Shown in pieces: positions 1,718-61,537 of a stretch of 64,000 bases of DNA. The DNA lies in contig CBDANS010000007.1 of the NCBI GenBank assembly GCA_965197745.1, positions 736,001-800,000 of the forward strand, written 5' to 3'. The stretch comes from Opitutales bacterium. Its GTDB lineage: Bacteria; Verrucomicrobiota; Verrucomicrobiia; Opitutales; PNEW01. A model generated the notes under the pieces. The model was not told the DNA's origin. It saw only the letters and a program-made list of their open reading frames with translations, and ran no database searches. Every line of letters starts with the position of its first letter. The first letter of the stretch is position 1. Both the position numbers and the translations under genes were made by a program.

Positions 1718-1993
1718 ACTTTTTCTAAATAAAGAGTCAATATGTCAAAAGGTCAAAAAGTCAAAAGGTCAAAAGAAGGAATGCGATTATGCGAAAATGC
1801 GGGTTAGCGGTCCAAGCGTATCTAGACTGAGTAGATTCAACTCTCATCATTAAACTCACATTAACCTGAGCATTGTCGAGGGAACCATAGCGGCAAACCC
1901 TGAAACCTGACTCTTAAAACAGAAAATCCTTAGATTATCTCCCTTTCGAACTTTGACTCTATCTCCAATTCCTATCAGTATTCCTGTACTGTT

Positions 1994-2821
1994 ATGGAAT
2001 CACCAGTGGCATATCGCTATTTTGGGGGAGAAGGTAACCCTCCGCTTGTTATTCTTCATGGTTTATTAGGCTCCTCAAGAAATTGGCAAAGCGTAGGCAA
2101 AGCTCTGGTTAATGACTATGAAGTCTTTGCTCTCGACTTGCGCAATCACGGTAATTCCCCGCATACCGAAGCTATGACCTTTACCGGTTTAGTGGATGAC
2201 CTTCAAGACTGGCTTAATTGTCAGGGATTAAAGGAGGTTAACATTATGGGGCACAGCCTGGGGGGGAAAGTGGCGATGGCCTTTGCCTGTCAGTACGCTG
2301 ATCGAGTAGCCACCCTGCTGATTATCGATATTGCACCGAAAAACTATCCACCACATCATGATCATACATTCGATGCGATGAACGGATTGGATCTAGAGAA
2401 TCTCCAGAGCAGGGCAGATGCTGATAGGGAACTGGAGTCTGATATCTCAGATTTGGCGTTACGCCAATTTCTACTTACCAACTTGAAAAAAGATCCTGAT
2501 GGAGGACATCGCTGGCAGGTGAACCTGCCCGTCCTTACTGAGAGTTTACCGACACTTTCGTTAAACCCACTCGATTTAGCAGACCGGTATTTTGGCCCCA
2601 CACTTTTTATTCGCGGGGCACATTCTGATTATGTTTCGGAACAGGATATCCCAACGCTTAAGCGCCATTTTCCACAAAATGTCATGGTCACTTTAGAAAA
2701 TACCATGCACAATCCCCACCAGAGCAATCCAGATGCATTTATTACCTGCCTCACCGAGTTCAGGGCATTCCTCAGTCGAAGTGACAGCGCCTGGGAACCC
2801 GGCGGCACATGCACATCCTGA
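1994..2821 (+). CDS. Alpha/beta-fold hydrolase (YbfF-like esterase)
   Basis: HGLLGS, DLRNHG and GHSLGG nucleophile motifs. Confidence 0.9.
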   Translation: MESPVAYRYFGGEGNPPLVILHGLLGSSRNWQSVGKALVNDYEVFALDLRNHGNSPHTEAMTFTGLVDDLQDWLNCQGLKEVNIMGHSLGGKVAMAFACQYADRVATLLIIDIAPKNYPPHHDHTFDAMNGLDLENLQSRADADRELESDISDLALRQFLLTNLKKDPDGGHRWQVNLPVLTESLPTLSLNPLDLADRYFGPTLFIRGAHSDYVSEQDIPTLKRHFPQNVMVTLENTMHNPHQSNPDAFITCLTEFRAFLSRSDSAWEPGGTCTS

Positions 2822-2874
2822 GCGTCGCAAATGCGGACATAGACAAAGATTATGGATAATCACCATACAATGAA

Positions 2875-3107
2875 TCTTCGTCTTCGTCTGCCTCCTCGTC
2901 TTCGTCCTTATTTACCCTAATTACTAAATAATTAGGGTTATTAAATCTTAGACTATATATCATACTTCCCAACGGACGCGATCAGCCGTCGCCCCGCAAC
3001 CGCGGGGCTATGGCCGACAGGCTTTACGCGTCCCTCCATATTATTTTTGTGATTTTTATGGCTATTTAATGGGAGGACCAAGACGCAGACGATGACGAAG
3101 ACGACGA
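2875..3107. repeat. Inverted hexamer-repeat arms (TCTTCG-type / CGAAGA-type) enclosing a REP-like hairpin with a mini-insert
   Basis: Left arm 2875-2908, right arm 3074-3107; related arms at 6516-6543/6727-6742. Confidence 0.75.
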
Positions 3108-3160
3108 TTATAGGCATATCGCCATACAATGAAGCTTCATCTGCGTCCTCTTAAATATAT

Positions 3161-3359
3161 CACCCTGGAGGGGTGACACAATCATAGCCCACAGCGTAAG
3201 CTGTGGGAAATAATATACGAAAAATTAAGCCCCAGCGGGGCGACACAAATTGACAGATAATCCGGTTTGTGTCGCCCCGCTGGGGCTCTAAAATTGGGTT
3301 GCCATCACCTTACCCATTGCTTGCGCAATGGGCTAATTATGTTACGCCCCTCCGGGGCT
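3161..3359. repeat. ~200-bp multi-hairpin REP/MITE-like doublet, copy 1
   Basis: Near-identical to 6270-6470 and 60985-61183; the two halves are imperfect inverted copies. Confidence 0.85.
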
Positions 3360-3417
3360 AATAGAAAGCCGAAGATTATCGTATATTATCATACCCCTCT
3401 ACCTGCCGGAAAGCTGG

Positions 3418-4356
3418 CTAGCGCGACCAGATTCGCAGGGAATTCAGAAAGAAATACTCCATTGCTGCACCCTCATTAAGGTTTACTTCAAGCAGGCCTG
3501 CACATTGCTCGAGATTCGAAACCGCCTGAGCAAATTGATAAACAAGAAATTCTTGTGTTTCTTTAGCTGAATGGACGACAAAATGCCTTGTTTGTATTTC
3601 CAGTTCAGTAATCAATTGTTTTCGAATGCTTTTTTGCATCCCTACTTTATAAGCTTCTTTTTCCTCCTCGTCCAAATGGTCGGGCATGACTGATTTCTCA
3701 TTATTCCAGATGGTCTCGGTGTATGTTTTGATTATACTTTGGTAACGCGTCACTAACCCGTAAGTGGCTAATACTAATTCTGCTTTATCTTGAGCTGTTT
3801 CCACGCCATCGTTCAGTCCCTTCAACCATTTTCGATAATCTTCTATCCAGGATTGCCATTCGGGGTCTTCAATAAGGATTAATTGGGAGGGTAGGTGGAA
3901 ATTAAAACAGCGGCTGCGAATAGTATCGAGAAGGGCGTAAGGACGGGTCGATAATAAAATAATCGTTGTATTGGCGGGGGGTTCTTCCAGGGTTTTCAGG
4001 AATGCGTTGGCGGACTCACGGTTCATTCTGTCAGCATCGTAGACAAGCGCTACTTTATTATTACTTAGACGAGGCGTATGTTGAATCCGGCGATTAAGTT
4101 CCCGTGTTTCTCCTATCCTGATTTGTCTCGCTTTGTGAGAGGGTCGCAGAGTGAAAAAATCCGGATGCGCACTGGCTTGATTGGACGATTCAAGTAAGGT
4201 CGAAGCCAGCGCCAACCCGACTTCTTCAAGGGTCTCGCTATTTTTTCCATGAAGAAGGATCCCGTGCGCAAGACGACCTTTCTTGATTGAACGGTCGAGA
4301 ACCTTTACGGGACGGCTATGGCACAGTGGCTCAGATAAAGCGTCCGCTAAGCTCAT
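3418..4356 (-). CDS. holB: DNA polymerase III delta-prime subunit
   Basis: HPDF, ANAFLKTLEEPP and TIRSRC motifs; overlaps tmk. Confidence 0.9.
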   Translation of the reverse strand: MSLADALSEPLCHSRPVKVLDRSIKKGRLAHGILLHGKNSETLEEVGLALASTLLESSNQASAHPDFFTLRPSHKARQIRIGETRELNRRIQHTPRLSNNKVALVYDADRMNRESANAFLKTLEEPPANTTIILLSTRPYALLDTIRSRCFNFHLPSQLILIEDPEWQSWIEDYRKWLKGLNDGVETAQDKAELVLATYGLVTRYQSIIKTYTETIWNNEKSVMPDHLDEEEKEAYKVGMQKSIRKQLITELEIQTRHFVVHSAKETQEFLVYQFAQAVSNLEQCAGLLEVNLNEGAAMEYFFLNSLRIWSR

Positions 4357-6470: not shown

Positions 6471-6894
6471 TTTTGTAATGCGGGCTCGGGCTTATTGTTA
6501 TACATTTCAGCTTAGTCTTCGTCTGCCTCCTCGTCTTCGTCCTCTTTTCCCTCAATTACCTAATCGCAAGTGGTATTAAATCTAAGTCAGTATTCCAAAC
6601 TTCCCAGCGGCCACGACGATGCGTGGCCCTCCAGAAAAAGAACAAATGGAGGTGGGATGGCAACGTTATGCCTGTCGGCCATAGTCCCGCCACCGCGGAA
6701 CGACGGCTGATGGCTATCTGAATCCAAGGACGAAGACGAAGATTATAGGTAATGATCAAACCATTGTTTGCGCAATGGGCCAATTATGTATCGCTCCTCC
6801 GGGGTTGGGGCGTTATGGTATTGTTTCTTAAGATTGAACTGTTATATCATTTAATGTAACTGTTTAAGTATTATCATAACTCAATATATAGAGT

Positions 6895-10164: not shown

Positions 10165-10532
10165 TATAGAGAGTTAGTGAAAAATGGATACGAATATTAT
10201 TATCCATCACTTGCGTAATGGGCTATTTTATATCGCCCTTACGGGGTTTAGAAGAATCGAGTAAATCATCACTCAATGCCTCCTCGTCTTCAATTGCCCC
10301 AATAACTTAAAATATGTTGTATTAAATCCAGTCAATTTCTCGAATTACCCAACGGTCACGGTCAGCCGTCGCCCCGCAACCGCGGGGCTATGGCTGACAA
10401 GTATCGCATTGCCCTCCATTTGAATAAATTCCCATCGGGAAGTGGAGGTTACTTTAAAATATACTTCTCCCGCTTAAACTCGTATACCCATATCCGCGTC
10501 ACCCTTTTTGCATCATCTGACTGCAATCAACG

Positions 10533-14477: not shown

Positions 14478-14725
14478 TTCACAACATCGTTAGTCAAAAA
14501 TGGAGAAAATCTAAGGATTTATTTTTTGGAGAGCCACATGGTGCCTGTCAGCCATAGCCCCGCGGTTGCCGGTTGCGGGGCGACGGTTGATTGTGGCCGA
14601 CAGGGATATTTAATACCGACGGTGTTAATCCTACTCTATCCGCGGACGCGACGAAGCGCGTCCCTCCATTAAAACGCATCACCGCATTCACGCATTTACG
14701 CGTATACCTTTTGACTAATAGACGG

Positions 14726-15571
14726 TCATCTCCCGAAGAGCATCTTCCCTAACATTTGCCAGATACTCATTCCTCCGCCTTGCTGTTGCTGTTGACCTTG
14801 GCTCTGGCTGCTTCCACTGCTGCTTCCGCTGCCTCCTCCTTGTCCGCTCTGCCCTCCACCACTCGAAGCGCTCTGTGAACTCTGACTGTTGCTCTGGTTC
14901 TGGTTTGAAGAAGAATTATTCTGCATTTGACCCATTTGACCGCCGATCTGCTGGATCTGTTGCTGGCCGGACATCGAGTTGGGTTGACCGGGCATGCCAC
15001 CTATAGGTTGACCCGAATCACTGCTTTGTTCGCCCATGACTTGAGTCCCTAGCGCTCTACTTGAGGGATCCGCCGTAATAATTTGGCCCCCTTCCATGTT
15101 TCGCGAACCTGAAGCTGCACCCATCGCTCCACCATCGATCTCGGCTACCTGCAGTCCCTCCTGATCCATATCGCTACCGCTGCCTCCAAGAGCCTGTTCA
15201 AACATATCATGATTAAATTGCCACACATAGATCTCGCTATTTTGCAGATTGGGGTTTTCGAAGGTTGCCAGATCAACAATGTCCTGGAGTTCAAAGCTTT
15301 TCTGTTCTGCTGTCAGGTAATCTTCAACGGGTCCAAAATAGTAAGTGAGATTTTCGTGACTGTACCTGATATAATAACCCTCCACATCAGGAATGTCACT
15401 GGATACATCAATGCCTGGGTACTTCTCCTGGAATTTATCAATAGATAAACGGCCACTGTCATAGATCGCCTCTATCGGTAAAATGAGAGACTTGCCGAGG
15501 AGTGCCGTTACTCCGGAGAAAATAAAAATTCCAATACCGGCTGCTCTGATTAAATTATATATTAAATCCAT
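14726..15571 (-). CDS. Hypothetical exported protein with a Gly/Ser/Gln-rich tail
   Basis: Start moved to the in-frame ATG at 15571 to avoid overlapping the upstream gene; hydrophobic N-terminus. Confidence 0.7.
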   Translation of the reverse strand: MDLIYNLIRAAGIGIFIFSGVTALLGKSLILPIEAIYDSGRLSIDKFQEKYPGIDVSSDIPDVEGYYIRYSHENLTYYFGPVEDYLTAEQKSFELQDIVDLATFENPNLQNSEIYVWQFNHDMFEQALGGSGSDMDQEGLQVAEIDGGAMGAASGSRNMEGGQIITADPSSRALGTQVMGEQSSDSGQPIGGMPGQPNSMSGQQQIQQIGGQMGQMQNNSSSNQNQSNSQSSQSASSGGGQSGQGGGSGSSSGSSQSQGQQQQQGGGMSIWQMLGKMLFGR

Positions 15572-16340: not shown

Positions 16341-16830
16341 CGTTTATGGAATTCCTACTTATTATCTTAGAAAAGAATGAAGGACCATTAGTTCCTCAAT
16401 ATATTAAATATTAAGATTTATCTCACTGGCAAATAATAAGTACGATTCTTCGCTCACATCTTCGTCTTTGCTTGCCACGGCGTAGTCTCGCGATCGCGAG
16501 ACGAAGACGGGTCTGCCTCCACGTTCTGGTCCTTGGATTGAGATAGCCACATAAGGCACTACCGAGCGAAGTGAGATCTTCCAAAAGCACAAATCAAGAA
16601 AGTATATCGAGTCTTAATATTTTCCTAAAAAATTCCTATATATTGTATGATCATGCTCCTAAGCGGACGCGACGGAGCGCGTCCCTCCAGAAAAGGAAAA
16701 AATGGAGGGCCACGCTCCGTCGTGGCCGCTTGGAAGTTTGAGAAACTGTCTTAGATTTAATACCTATGATTTAGTAATTAAGGTAAAAGAATACACAGAC
16801 CAAGACGAATATTAAACAAAGCCGTCCTAC

Positions 16831-22181: not shown

Positions 22182-22528
22182 GTCGAAAAGCGAAGCGAAC
22201 TCCGCCGTTTTAGGTGTTAAGTGTTAGGTTTAAGGCTATTCAGTCGTATCTTTAAAAGTTAATCATAATAAGCCAGTTCACCAAATTATACCATATATGT
22301 TTTATTGAATTTCCTTACCTAAAACCTAACACCTAAAACTTAACACAGAAAATCCTTGGATTTTCTCCCCCTTCCCTGTCTTCCTGTAAAAATTAATTTA
22401 TCTTTTATGTGTTTCTTGCCTGCCGGCCATAGTCCCGCAACTGCGGGACGGCGACCGGTGACTTTGGAAAATCTCACTTGGCTCGGTAGTGGCTATCCTC
22501 TTCTTCTTAGACCTTCGACTTTCGACTC
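22182..22528. repeat. Compound repeat: heptamer-arm element (22208-22365) plus a 9-mer arm with two mini-inserts and a CTTCGAC arm
   Basis: TTTTAGG TGTTAAG TGTTAGG / CCTAAAA CCTAACA CCTAAAA CTTAACA CAGAAAATCCTTGGATTTT. Confidence 0.8.
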
Positions 22529-26530: not shown

Positions 26531-26826
26531 AAAATCATTAGATTTTCTGTGTTAAGTTTTAGGTGTTAGCTGCCGTCGTATAAACTAGGGCGTACCAGGG
26601 ATTTTAAGTAGAGTTTGAATCAATCTCTCTCTTTCTATTTATAGCTTTGTCACCTAAACACGTGGCAAGCCATCTTTTCGGCGACGATTGGTGCCTTTGA
26701 AAGATCACGCTTCGCTCTGGTAGTAGCCTACCTCTTCTTTTTCTCCCCGCTTGCCACGCCATAGCCCTTAGCGACGGCAGGGCCTTCGACTCTTAACTTA
26801 AAACCTAACACCTAAAACTTAACACA
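26531..26826. repeat. Empty heptamer-arm element containing mini-inserts
   Basis: Left AAAATCATTAGATTTTCTGTGTTAAGTTTTAGGTGTTAG; right CTAACACCTAAAACTTAACACA (reverse complement). Confidence 0.85.
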
Positions 26827-34801: not shown

Positions 34802-36152
34802 TGATCGGACCCCGTATTTCGTATCAAATTTTAAGTGAGAGAACTACCGGGTGTTAATGGTTTTAGGATTGATGTATATGAGAGATCTTGGCGCAGTGAG
34901 GGCGTAGCCCGAACGCGGCCAAGAGCGGAAAGGAATGTGACAAACTCTTGTGGGCTTTTAAAGCCTAATCGACTGTGGGGATGTTCATTGTTATAGGTCT
35001 GACGCCATTGTTCTATTAGCACTTGCGCTTCAGCCACGCTGAGCAACACTTCACGGTTCAAACACTCATCGCGTAAGCGGTTGTGAAACGACTCGATGAA
35101 ACCGTTTTGCCAGGGACTGCCCGGATCGATATATATCGCCTTGATCTTTTTGTCGGACAACCACTGCTGCACCTGATGAGCAATGAATGGCTTCGCATGT
35201 CGTCGCTTCGCTCCTCGGAACACTGCCGTTGTCACTGCGGATATAGCTAGGAACTCCCTCTTCATCGATGGTTTCGCTGAGTACCGAGAGAACATCGGTT
35301 GAGGTGAGCTGTCGAGCTACCCGGATGCGTAAACATTTACGCGTATATGTCTTCGCTTCGCTTGAGTGTCGTCGCTTTCAGCTCCTCGGTACATCGATCA
35401 AGGTCATCATCTTTAGCATACCGCCATTGTCTGTACGATCATGGACAAAGTCCCAGGACCAGACGTGATTGCGACCGGTTGCTTTAGTAGGGAGCCCAGT
35501 AGAGATCCCCTGACGGTGTCTACGCTTTTTCGGTGGCTTTACCTGTAAGCCCGAAGAACGTCGCACTGCCTGTACAAATTTCCTGCTTGCCGCCCAACCT
35601 TCTTTCACCAGCAAGGCACGAATGCGCCGGTAACCGTAACGGGGATGTTCCCAGGACAAGGTCAAAATCCGCTCGGCCAATTGCTGAGCCTTCTTACTGG
35701 CCTGCTTGGGTCGGTAGCTGTACGTTGACCAACTGAGGCTGAGATAAGCACAAGCCCTCTAAAACGAGCACAGCCCCTTCTCAGCCGCATCTTTTACTGC
35801 TCGCTTCTTCTGCTTTGGGCTCACCATTTTTTTGAGAGCGTTTCCTCCAACACCCGAAGCTTGAGCATTTGATCAGCGAGCATCTTCTTCAGCTCCGTAT
35901 TCTCCTTTTCCAGCTCTTTAAATCGCTTCGCATCAGCCAGCTCCAAGTTGCCATACTTTTTGCCCCAGCGATAGAAGGTCTGTTCACTTAGGTTGTTGCC
36001 GTGGCAGACTTCCTGCACGGTTTTGCCCGTATCGGGCTGCCGCAGTATTGCTATGATCTGTTCTGTTGTATATCTTTTTCTTTTCATTGAGGTTATCTGT
36101 TTATCCCGATAACCTCTCTCTGTTAATGATACCATTTTTGGGGGTCACTCCA
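34802..36152 (-). mobile_element. Degenerate IS3-family insertion sequence
   Basis: Imperfect IRs TGATCGGACCCC..GTATCA / TGGAGTGACCCC..GTATCA. OrfA MKRKRYTTEQII..KKW with an A7 run. OrfB with WSWDF, SDNG and PWQNGFIESF, broken by a TAG and two short inserts. Confidence 0.92.
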
Positions 36153-37956: not shown

Positions 37957-38137
37957 ACATTTTAATTTACAGGAAGATCGGGGAGGACGGGAAGAAAATT
38001 ATAGCCACAAAAAGCACAAAATGAGAGAGGGAATTGGCTGACAGATGTCGTCACGTTAAAGCAAGATGTACAATATATTTAACCACGAATGACACGGATA
38101 TCTAATATATATAAAGGAGTTGAATAGGGGATTAATG

Positions 38138-38972
38138 AGGAGTCTAAAGTCGAATGTCTAATGTCGAAAGTCGGAAAACGAAGAATTTTTACAGGAAGAT
38201 CCAGCCGTCGCCAAGGCTATGGCCTGGCAGGCGGGAAGAACGGGAAGAAAATAATAGCCACATTTCAGGAAGAGAATAAACCACGAATGGACGCGAATTA
38301 GCGCGGATTACCACGGATATTTTATATAGAGAAGAGTTAATTAGCCACCAACCGTCGTCCCGCGGTGGCGGGACTATGGTCGGCAAAGCAAGATGCACTA
38401 CCAGAGCACAGCGAGATTTTCTAATGACACAAGATACCTTCAGGTGAAAGTTAGTGCTTAATCGCAAAAGCTCAGCAGTAGCTGAGCTTCGGCTGTTCCT
38501 TACCGTTTTTTTAATTTTGATTTAAAAAACCGCGTAAAGGATTATCCGTATCAGTTCCGCTCGCGTGCGCGTGCGGGATGACTTTGCGATGAAGCATCGT
38601 ATTTCACCTTTTCTTAACTTCATGTATTTAAATCCGCGACATCTGCGTAATCCGCGTCTCCGCGACATCCGCGTAATCTGCGGTCAGATATTTCCGTCTT
38701 TCCCGCTTGCCACGCCATAGCTCACTAGAGCGACGGTGGGATCTTCCTGTAAAATCCCTCTCTTTTTTTGTGTCTCTTGCCTGCCGGTCATAGTCACGGC
38801 GTCAGTTGTTCATATCCGCGAAAGTATAAAAAAGGAATAATGATGTGTTATAAAGTGGAATCTCGGACGCAATCGGCCGTCGTCCTTACAAATACAGGAC
38901 TATGGCCGACAGGCACCATGCGTCCCTCCAGAAAAAGGAATATCGACTTTTGACATTAGACCTTCGACTTGA
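38138..38972. repeat. Multi-layer nested repeat element
   Basis: Heptamer arms outside, two kinds of 9-mer arms inside, central structured core. Confidence 0.85.
38439..38610. other. ~175-nt four-way-junction element, copy 1
   Basis: Near-identical to 39988-40162 and 42623-42797. Confidence 0.8.
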
Positions 38973-38998
38973 TCCTCCATCATTCAAACGATGGAGGA

Positions 38999-39685: not shown

Positions 39686-39987
39686 TGTGACTAGGAGTCA
39701 AAGGTCGAAGGTCTAAAGTCGAAAGTCTGAAAAATGAAGATTTTTGCAAGACGGCCGGAAAGAAAAGAATAGCCACATTTCAGGAAGAGAATAAACCACG
39801 AATGGACACTAATTTACACGAATATTATTTAAAGGATGAGAAAGAAAGAGATAGCCACCAGCCGATGCCGAGGCTATGGCAGGCAGGCAAGAGGCACCTA
39901 CCGACTTCCCGCAGTGGCGGGACTATGGCCAGCAAAGCAAGATGCACTACTGGAGCACAGCGAGATTTTCCAATGACACAAGAAAAC

Positions 39988-42107: not shown

Positions 42108-42622
42108 CTATTACCGCTTCCTCTCTTACGCACAAAAAACAATAGTATTAACAGTTTATTGTGTAACCTTATGATCTCTATTAATATACCTACATATTGC
42201 AGTTTTTACCACTTCGAATTACGCCGGCCTCCGCCTCGACAGATATAGATCGTAACATTCTTTACCGAGCGATTGGGTCAGTTTTTGAGCTGAAGGACCG
42301 TCAGCCACGGGTAGGTGGAATATCATTTTTCGGGGGAGTGCATATGAGGAGTCAAAGGTCGAAATCTAGAATACAGGAATATTTTTTACAGGAAGAGCGG
42401 AAAGAATAGCCACATTTCAGGAAGAGAATTAACCACTAAAGGACACTAATTAATACAGATATCTAATTTTTTAACCACGAATGGACACGAATTTACACGG
42501 ATATTTTATATAGAGAAGAGTTAATTAGCCACCAACCGTCGTCCCGCGGTGGTGGGACTATGGTCGGCAAAGCAAGATGCACTACCAGAGCACAGCGAGA
42601 TTTTCTAATGACACAAGATAAC

Positions 42623-42797: not shown

Positions 42798-43025
42798 TTA
42801 AACCCAAAATTAATATCCGCGATATTCGCGTCATCCGCGGTAAGATCTTGCTGTTTATTTTTGTGCCTCTTGCCTGCCGGTCATAGTCCCGCCACTGGGG
42901 GACGACGGTTGGTGCCTTTGAAAGATGTCGTCCCGGTGTCGCGGGACTCGGTAGTGGCTATCTTAAAAAAACCACAGCAGTGAATGTTACTGAAATAAAA
43001 GTTAAAGAATGGGCTATTTTAACTT

Positions 43026-60836: not shown

Positions 60837-60984
60837 AAGGGATGAGTCAAAAGTCGAAAGTCAATTGGACGCAACGGAGTGCGTCCCTCCAGAAAATAAA
60901 TGGAGAGATGAAGACACGGGCGATGACGAAGATTGTCGATTTACATTATAGAATATAGCTTCTTCTTCGTCCTTCCAGTTATTT

Positions 60985-61183
60985 CACCCCGGAGGGGTGA
61001 CACAATCACAGCTCGCAGCGTAAGCTTTGGGAATAATTTACGAATAATTTAAGCCCCAGCGGGGCGACACAAACCGGCTTATCTGTCAATTTGTATCGCC
61101 CCTCCGGGGCTCTGAAAATGGGTTGCACATCTCAAACCCATTGCTTACGCAATGGGCTAATTATGTTACGCCCCTCCGGGGCT
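60985..61183. repeat. ~200-bp multi-hairpin REP/MITE-like doublet, copy 3
   Basis: Aligns with 3161-3359 and 6270-6470. Confidence 0.85.
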
Positions 61184-61305: not shown

Positions 61306-61537
61306 TAACCATCAATTAAAATACTAAAAATAATTGATTCGCATGTTAAATCGGACGCAATCAGCCGTCGTCCCGCGATTGCAGGATGAAGGGTGATGGT
61401 GGCTGTCTAAATCGTAGACGAGGACGAAGATTGGTTCATATCATCATACCCATTTCCGGTGTCATTTGGGAATATATAATAGCCCCGTAGGGGTACAGGC
61501 TATTAGCCGGGGGTTTTAAACCCCTGGGAAAAATAGC

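Follow-up and report, generated by a model that had tools for sequence, protein, structure and literature searches.

A family of 30-48-nt hairpin units present or absent at one bond of unrelated intergenic repeats in an Opitutales genome

What moves REPs and other tiny dispersed repeats is a long-standing question. Insertion sequences of the IS200/IS605 type carry two different subterminal hairpins, use a fixed 4-5-nt target and have a lagging-strand bias, and single-strand transposition of this type would predict a replichore bias. SDR1-8 of heterocyst-forming cyanobacteria were reportedly described by Elhai in 2008 as very small hairpin repeats of 21-27 nt nested in other repeats, and we know of no enzyme that mobilises them. 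For REPs, TnpA-REP of E. coli is described as cutting C^T beside hairpins tagged with GTAG (PMC3333891, PMC8266576). As presented by Di Nocera (2013, PMC3733652), REPs may themselves reside in small palindromes (T. roseum GTAG-23, A. variabilis GTAG-15 and H. neapolitanus CGTC-1), T. roseum has hundreds of empty target palindromes, CGTC-tagged REPs are listed without a dedicated transposase, and Opitutus terrae, from the same order as the genome analyzed here, is rich in GTAG/GTGG REPs.

We analyzed a 64-kb stretch (the window, C7:736001-800000) of a 4.45-Mb Opitutales genome with 45% GC, in which 37957-38998 is a gene-free spacer crowded with short repeats. Comparison of filled with empty sites defines a hairpin unit with the frame N-CAGCC-GTCG-(variable GC hairpin top)-CTAT-GGCYG-N'-CAGG. 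The unit contains no genes and is 30-48 nt long, with a length of 40 nt in 31 of the 55 copies that match a strict pattern. The first-pass annotation had proposed such a family of mini-inserts from about 18 copies in the window, and the family is real: CCGTCG-N(8-30)-CTATGG has 8 exact matches in the window compared to 0.12 expected, a number reached in none of 100 shuffles. A covariance model seeded with six window copies identified 84 matches in the whole genome at E<=0.01, a few of which are reverse-strand echoes, and 15 distinct copies in the window at E<=0.1. The strict pattern, run as a regular expression over the whole genome, found its 55 copies versus none in a block-shuffled genome. 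The model thus accounts for 15 of the 18 copies first listed; the remaining three (26662, 38779 and 61361) are degenerate or truncated and were recognized by eye only. Copies and empty sites in the window are as follows, where hosts A to I are the repeat contexts listed further below and G001 is a related genome.

2982..3021, plus strand: 40-nt unit in the loop of a host A REP (model)
6671..6710, minus strand: 40-nt unit after ..ATAGCCA^ (host E type; model)
10362..10401, plus strand: 40-nt unit in a diverged REP (GGTCACG..; model)
14544..14590, minus strand: 47-nt unit, top 7 nt longer, in a host B REP (model)
16471..16511, minus strand: variant unit with the frame CTTCG..CTACG (model, E 3e-4)
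22419..22461, minus strand: 43-nt unit in a 9-mer array context (model)
26750..26781, minus strand: 32-nt unit with the top CTAAGGG (model, E 4e-3)
37969..37995, plus strand: empty host F, bond ACAGGAAGAT^CGGG at 37978^37979; G001 ortholog also empty
38201..38231, plus strand: 31-nt unit with the short top CCAAGG, filling the ACAGGAAGAT^CGGG bond of host F (model, E 7e-6)
38348..38387, plus strand: 40-nt unit after ..TTAGCCA^C (host E type; model, E 3e-16)
38706..38740, minus strand: 35-nt unit with the top CTCTAGTGAG, filling a second, inverted host F; G001 ortholog empty (model; clean 35-nt gap)
38779..38808, minus strand: degenerate partial unit, 3' frame retained (by eye; missed by the model at E<=0.1)
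38873..38913, plus strand: 41-nt unit in the loop of a GGACGCA..TGCGTCC-CTCCA REP (host A; model)
39858..39887, plus strand: 30-nt unit with the top CCGAGG, after ATAGCCA^C (model)
39898..39936, plus strand: 5'-truncated unit, top and 3' frame (model, E 8e-6)
42532..42571, plus strand: 40-nt unit within a duplicate of the 38348 region (model)
42873..42912, minus strand: 40-nt unit at AAGGCA^CAAGAGGCAC (host E; model), with 13 empty sites of the same flanks elsewhere in the genome
60867..60891, plus strand: empty host A REP, GGACGCA-ACGGAG-TGCGTCC-CTCCA
61361..61395, plus strand: 3'-truncated unit, 5' frame and top, in the left arm of a host A REP (by eye)

The window has other small features besides the units. 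Two Rfam Acido-Lenti-1 RNA matches above the gathering score (3313-3359 and 61137-61183; 43.8 and 39.6 bits) each lie a few hundred bases from a unit. An IS3-family element at 34831-36135 has decayed, its orfA/orfB now broken up into frames of 104, 100 and 154 aa, and its first 1.15 kb is found in at least 40 copies in a second related genome, G002. Two short related blocks within this element (~35186-35220 and ~35350-35392) suggest a further family of mini-inserts, present in some IS copies and missing from others, and contigs of three out of four public runs join 35187 to 35221, omitting 33 nt of the element.

The halves of the frame are complementary apart from two conserved irregularities, an A that faces C or T and a C that faces T. 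A complete unit is therefore predicted to fold into one long imperfect hairpin, closed by the N-N' pair and followed by a 4-nt 3' tail. N and N' are Watson-Crick partners in 46 of the 55 strict-pattern copies (T-A in 24, C-G in 11 and A-T in 11), compared to a mean of 20.6 and a maximum of 32 in 2000 shuffles. The central stem had been noted to change sequence while staying paired. In an alignment of 53 matches from the genome and its relatives, which was fitted to the covariance model and includes eight reverse-strand echoes, 95.8% of cells are paired and 7 of 14 pairs are changed on both sides, levels reached by none of 500 shuffles, and the predicted hairpin is therefore supported by compensatory change. 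Tops range from CCAAGG up to 24-nt extended stems and their loop sequence is free to vary. The top TCCCGCGGTGGCGGGA is identical across hosts B, C, D and E and one further, unassigned context, and CCAAGG is common to hosts C, D and E. Every copy in the genome is intergenic; the few that seemed to lie inside an ORF were discounted, as those ORFs (111-125 aa) are spurious. A likeness of the reverse strand of the unit to 5S rRNA was ruled out by comparison with the genome's own 5S gene.

To follow the frame in relatives we searched for GCCGTCG...CTATGGC with the reversed pattern as control, and found 61 versus 3 matches in G001, 32 versus 0 in G015, 57 versus 10 in G024 and 10 versus 2 in G028. 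With frame-rich genomes defined as those with a minimum of 10 hits and a fourfold or greater excess over the control, thresholds that were chosen after the counts were seen, the frame is enriched in 11 out of 301 sampled Verrucomicrobiota genomes, from 8 families. It is conserved in several classes of the phylum, with lineage-specific tops, and is patchy within families of the 301-genome sample. The hosts of the unit in G001 are the same REPs as in the source genome; a host inverted repeat again encloses the unit between its two arms in G024 and in two MAGs, one of Opitutaceae and one of Akkermansia. A frame scan of all genome contigs gave 3 real copies among the 117 matches listed (two Opitutales MAGs and one Akkermansia MAG), and a scan of viral contigs gave none among the 118 matches listed, most of the matches in these listings being due to chance.

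Conservation of 9+9 nt of frame over several classes while the tops differ, together with pairing kept by compensatory change and the presence of eight copies after the stop codons of paralogous secreted-protein genes, would be expected if the unit were a functional structured RNA or a protein-binding DNA site under selection, its presence and absence reflecting gain and loss of a regulatory module. We find this improbable, however, as the units show no preferred orientation with respect to neighbouring genes (in unidirectional spacers, 9 are sense and 17 antisense), occur in convergent and divergent spacers alike, and number some 80 copies nested in other repeats on either strand. Furthermore, Rfam 15 families gave no match on the units, and the frame is patchy within families of the phylum. 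The copies beside the secreted-protein genes are a frame variant located 20-25 nt past the stop of genes encoding ~741-754 aa (C5:168034, C6:108369, C6:111154, C6:116441, C6:402372, C6:1112524, C7:891472 and C7:1363981). These paralogs share a conserved C-terminal region of ~1.1 kb with 78-90% DNA identity, and the variants were duplicated with the genes.

Throughout the genome, eight unrelated kinds of short repeat occur both with and without the unit at one exact bond, and its ends fall at the same boundaries in all of them. Empty and filled sites were counted genome-wide using exact flank definitions.

Host A, GGACGCGA^C..CGCGTCC: 38 empty, 8 filled
Host B, GGCCACGA^C..CGTGGCC: 79 empty, 6 filled
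Host C, GCGTGCTAGGGA^CAGCCCGC: 20 empty, 6 filled
Host D, ACGCGSTAGGGA^CASCGCGT: 18 empty, 4 filled
Host E, in 9-mer arrays, AAGGCA^CAAGAGGCAC: 13 empty, 1 filled
Host F, ACAGGAAGAK^CGGGRA: 1 empty, 2 filled
Host G, GGAAGATGT^CGG..: 4 empty, 1 filled
Host I, CAAGCARCCT^CGCGATGAC: 7 empty, 1 filled

Hosts A-D are REPs, built of a 7-bp stem around a 6-nt loop and ending in a tail of CTCCA or TCCACC; empty copies number 141 and 71, and the C and D types form inverted doublets. The unit is found in the loop of these REPs, in a single orientation relative to the tail. Outside REP loops, the unit has targets in the 9-mer arrays and at the end of a small cassette with a nuclease gene, host G being the outer part of a small GIY-YIG gene cassette. 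The filled and empty sites that the first-pass annotation had named for two targets in the window are confirmed: the host F bond is empty at 37978^37979 and filled at 38201-38231 and, on the opposite strand, at 38706-38740; and the GGACGC.. REP loop is empty at 60867-60891 and filled at 2982-3021 and 38873-38913. A blind flank-abutment test found an empty-like site elsewhere for 25 of 57 copies, compared to 7 of 57 with randomly paired flanks.

Of the 55 strict-pattern copies, 49 are preceded by A and 50 are followed by C, defining a W^C insertion bond; bases farther out differ among hosts, and no fixed target tetranucleotide is conserved among the 55. Target duplication, of which no clear case had been noted at the outset, is indeed absent at the junctions of the host contexts and of two orthologous pairs described below; at the filled and empty sites in the window, just one base (C) is ambiguous. 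A MITE of a DDE transposon was rejected on the ground that no junction examined has a target-site duplication. We also observed a second mini-insert family of ~25 nt, ACGATTCGACTGAGCTCRTCGCAGG, which likewise ends in CAGG and is inserted at the same bond (GGGA^C) within D-type REP loops (C4:198967, C6:1382983, C6:946599, C7:518634, C7:1455915 and others). At C6:786381 it stands in tandem with the hairpin unit.

The window region is syntenic in G001 and G002, members of the family to which the source genome (G000) belongs, but of another genus. At the site of 38706-38740, host F is uninterrupted in G001 and affine alignment gives a single 35-nt gap equal to the unit. In the spacer matching ~14480-14750, G002 has a 30-nt unit inside a GTCAAAAAG-type array at which its congener G001 is empty, the difference being one 30-nt gap whose nearest flanks match at 17 of 18 and 19 of 19 bases. 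In the same spacer, the filled REP at 14544..14590 has a filled counterpart in G002 and none in G001, so that the REP+unit composite is present in G000 and G002 and wholly absent from G001. Both filled/empty pairs are unrooted, and either insertion or exact loss would fit. Filled/empty polymorphism at units, for which sequencing reads had been suggested as a source, was not found in the contigs of four public runs, which are near-identical to the window, broken at repeats and stripped of rare variants.

If exact loss were the rule, the empty sites would be hairpin deletions from an ancestrally filled state and the unit an old part of each host repeat. Hairpins are deletion-prone and the two orthologous pairs are unrooted, but empty sites outnumber filled ones in 7 of 8 hosts and the empty loops have a uniform consensus. 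Moreover, eight unrelated repeats would each need to have had this unit, with identical ends, from the start, and by reading we find no flanking direct repeats that could drive exact slippage. We therefore regard deletion as highly improbable.

Intergenic repeat content turns over fast between the genera of the source genome, G001 and G002. The spacer at 1772-3424 is 1652 nt here versus 114 and 215 nt in G001 and G002, longer because repeat modules accumulated. Within 38440-38700, part of the gene-free spacer retains 72-80% identity with G001, including the hairpin AGCTCAGCAGTAGCTGAGCT and an A/T-rich palindrome, and the conserved part may be a small RNA or regulatory region.

On balance we think it probable that these sequences are a family of 30-48-nt gene-less hairpin elements of the REP class, inserted at one A/T^C bond without target duplication. 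The shared boundaries in eight hosts and the two orthologous filled/empty pairs bear out the original proposal of a very small non-autonomous element that targets other repeats, and the unit behaves like one of the smallest mobile elements known. A different account, which we consider rather unlikely, dispenses with transposition: the unit would be an optional inner arm of composite REPs, spread by ectopic recombination, gene conversion or template switching, for example through break repair at extruded hairpin loops. Several observations are in line with it or weigh against the main reading. The identity of the N-N' pair goes with the host family (T-A in A/B, largely A-T in C, a mixture of C-G and A-T in D), and the filled A/B REPs have loop residues slightly unlike those of the commonest empty A/B loops. 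The copy at C7:2071735 has chimeric flanks, with a D-type left arm and a 9-mer array at the right; truncated copies break at the edges of the top; a second insert family uses the same bond of D-type REPs; and one orthologous spacer differs by a whole REP+unit composite between G000 and G002 on one side and G001 on the other. Conversion, however, needs homology on two sides, and hosts F, G and I, the 9-mer arrays and the REP loops share no flank similarity. Nor does recombination readily explain the clean 30- and 35-nt indels at orthologous sites that are not REPs.

Units lie at the A/T^C bond in a constant orientation relative to the host repeat, mostly in the single-stranded loops of REP hairpins. 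A composite formed in a REP loop would then multiply together with its host REP, which would explain why N-N' tracks the host family. Our reading of the data is that true insertions were limited in number, with about ten contexts, and that the units were afterwards co-amplified with their host REP and to some extent recombined among copies. That N-N' follows the host and not the top fits better with few insertions plus co-amplification, or with exchange of tops, than with many independent jumps. The mobilizing enzyme would act in trans on folded single-stranded DNA, recognizing the invariant frame that forms the hairpin foot.

The leading candidate for this enzyme is a Y1/HUH nuclease of the RAYT type, an assignment that we make tentatively. 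The missing target duplication is compatible with HUH chemistry without identifying it. The genome has a single Y1 (PF01797) gene, C6:163149-163742, encoding 198 aa and followed by an overlapping 171-aa frame; the G001 ortholog runs to 347 aa, with 93% identity over 160 residues, which suggests a frameshift in the local copy. No units or host REPs were found within ~1.5 kb of this gene or its G001 ortholog, and none of the 24 further Y1 loci in relatives has a unit beside it, the nearest being one variant copy ~800 nt from a Y1 gene (L201). The Y1/RAYT gene flanked by the hairpin that the first-pass annotation envisaged was thus not encountered at the genome's own gene or at those 24 loci. In G040, the Y1 clade of the source genome's type forms a 1.33-kb IS with ~30-bp terminal inverted repeats unrelated to the unit. 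The G040 IS on contig C1 encodes a 300-350-aa Y1 (HUH) protein and its terminal inverted repeats contain GGGGACGGACC; the own-type Y1 protein has 56 matches in that genome. The units have no replichore strand bias, with both strands represented in both skew domains of C6 and C7 (small n). The earlier attribution to HUH/RAYT activity is not supported by these findings, given the frameshifted-looking gene, the Y1 loci without a hairpin beside them, the IS bounded by terminal inverted repeats, and the lack of both strand bias and a conserved target tetranucleotide. The own-type Y1 clade is present in 6 of 7 motif-bearing versus 5 of 34 other genomes among 41 relatives, and in 9 of 11 frame-rich versus 102 of 290 other genomes in the phylum sample. 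This association of clade and frame is suggestive only, as relatives are not independent and the thresholds are post hoc.

Small GIY-YIG nucleases (8 hits in the genome) were also considered as a partner and rejected: the inverted ends of their cassettes are a repeat other than the unit, and we found no general link, although one cassette end hosts a unit. Genes of this kind (~100 aa) lie in cassettes bounded by the inverted repeat CTCTTGTCATTGCGAGGAG at C7:1544159-1547377 and C7:1540504-1543722. Pieces of the cassette ends that lack the gene are dispersed through the genome, where they act as host G, and in G015 a unit abuts the same kind of cassette end. At C5:55123-58332, ~95-nt structured units (locus positions 1040-1135, ~1225-1320 and 1737-1835, with another at C5:48162-48260) begin exactly at the CCA end of tRNA genes with the frame variant CAGCCTTCG..CTACGGCTGGCAGG, end with its complement and flank an 82-aa GIY-YIG gene. 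They are followed by a GTAG-TCCCGC-GACT-GCGGGA REP, the stem of which is the commonest top of the hairpin unit.

A broader form of the insertion hypothesis is possible, though we rate it as rather unlikely. A hairpin with a near-invariant 9+9-nt foot may have persisted and kept inserting across Verrucomicrobiota classes without a linked transposase, moved by a conserved chromosomal enzyme hitherto unlinked to DNA mobility, or by a domesticated Y1 working only in trans, that pastes folded single-stranded hairpins into exposed A/T^C bonds, for instance in the loops of extruded hairpins. If true, hairpin pasting would be a general way for intergenic repeats of bacteria to acquire their nested, mosaic organization. 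The family offers clean material for such questions: its ends are exact to the base, the genome itself holds dozens of empty targets, two filled/empty pairs exist between species, and the hairpin is defined, its foot being conserved while its top is free. Its phylum-wide distribution allows a presence/absence search for the enzyme. The unit also accounts for much of the mosaic, repeat-filled intergenic DNA of this genome, and such DNA breaks short-read assemblies.

Compared to REP/REPIN-RAYT systems as outlined in the sources we draw on (PMC3116915, PMC3333891, PMC8266576), the unit is likewise a short GC-rich imperfect palindrome, intergenic, in high copy and without target duplication, with an invariant unpaired or mismatched frame at the stem foot and conserved mismatches inside the stem. 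On its reverse strand ATAG immediately precedes the top hairpin on the 5' side, the place that GTAG takes in REPs. The near-invariant tag of the unit is ATAG/CGTCG, one per strand, where that of REPs is GTAG, and neither is a canonical tag in the canonical unpaired position. Unlike REPINs, however, the units are single and not inverted doublets, no RAYT gene is flanked by units at the loci examined, the frame is conserved across the phylum and not just a genus, and the junction bonds are A^N and G^C, in contrast to the C^T of E. coli TnpA-REP. With IS200/IS605 elements the unit shares hairpin-dependent, orientation-specific insertion without target duplication, but it consists of one hairpin, has a W^C-only target and lacks strand bias. 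The cyanobacterial SDR1-8 reportedly differ in sequence and length, and are from another phylum. The REP-type hairpins inside other palindromes presented by Di Nocera (2013, PMC3733652) resemble the unit in this nesting, in an account that, as far as we draw on it, is given without base-exact junctions or orthologous filled/empty sites. The CGTC families described there have 8-9-bp stems that start with A/T pairs, a 4-5-nt loop and a CCA tail; unlike CGTC families 1-4, the stems of the unit start with C or T and then C, and its tail is CAGG. The unit may still be identical to an O. terrae REP family, with which it was compared by description (PMC3733652). A literature search, including one by four exact unit sequences, found no published description of this hairpin family. 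Overall, as judged against these sources, it is a new and well-defined family of hairpins, its closest counterparts being the palindrome-nested REPs of Di Nocera (2013) and, by reported likeness, the cyanobacterial SDRs of Elhai (2008).
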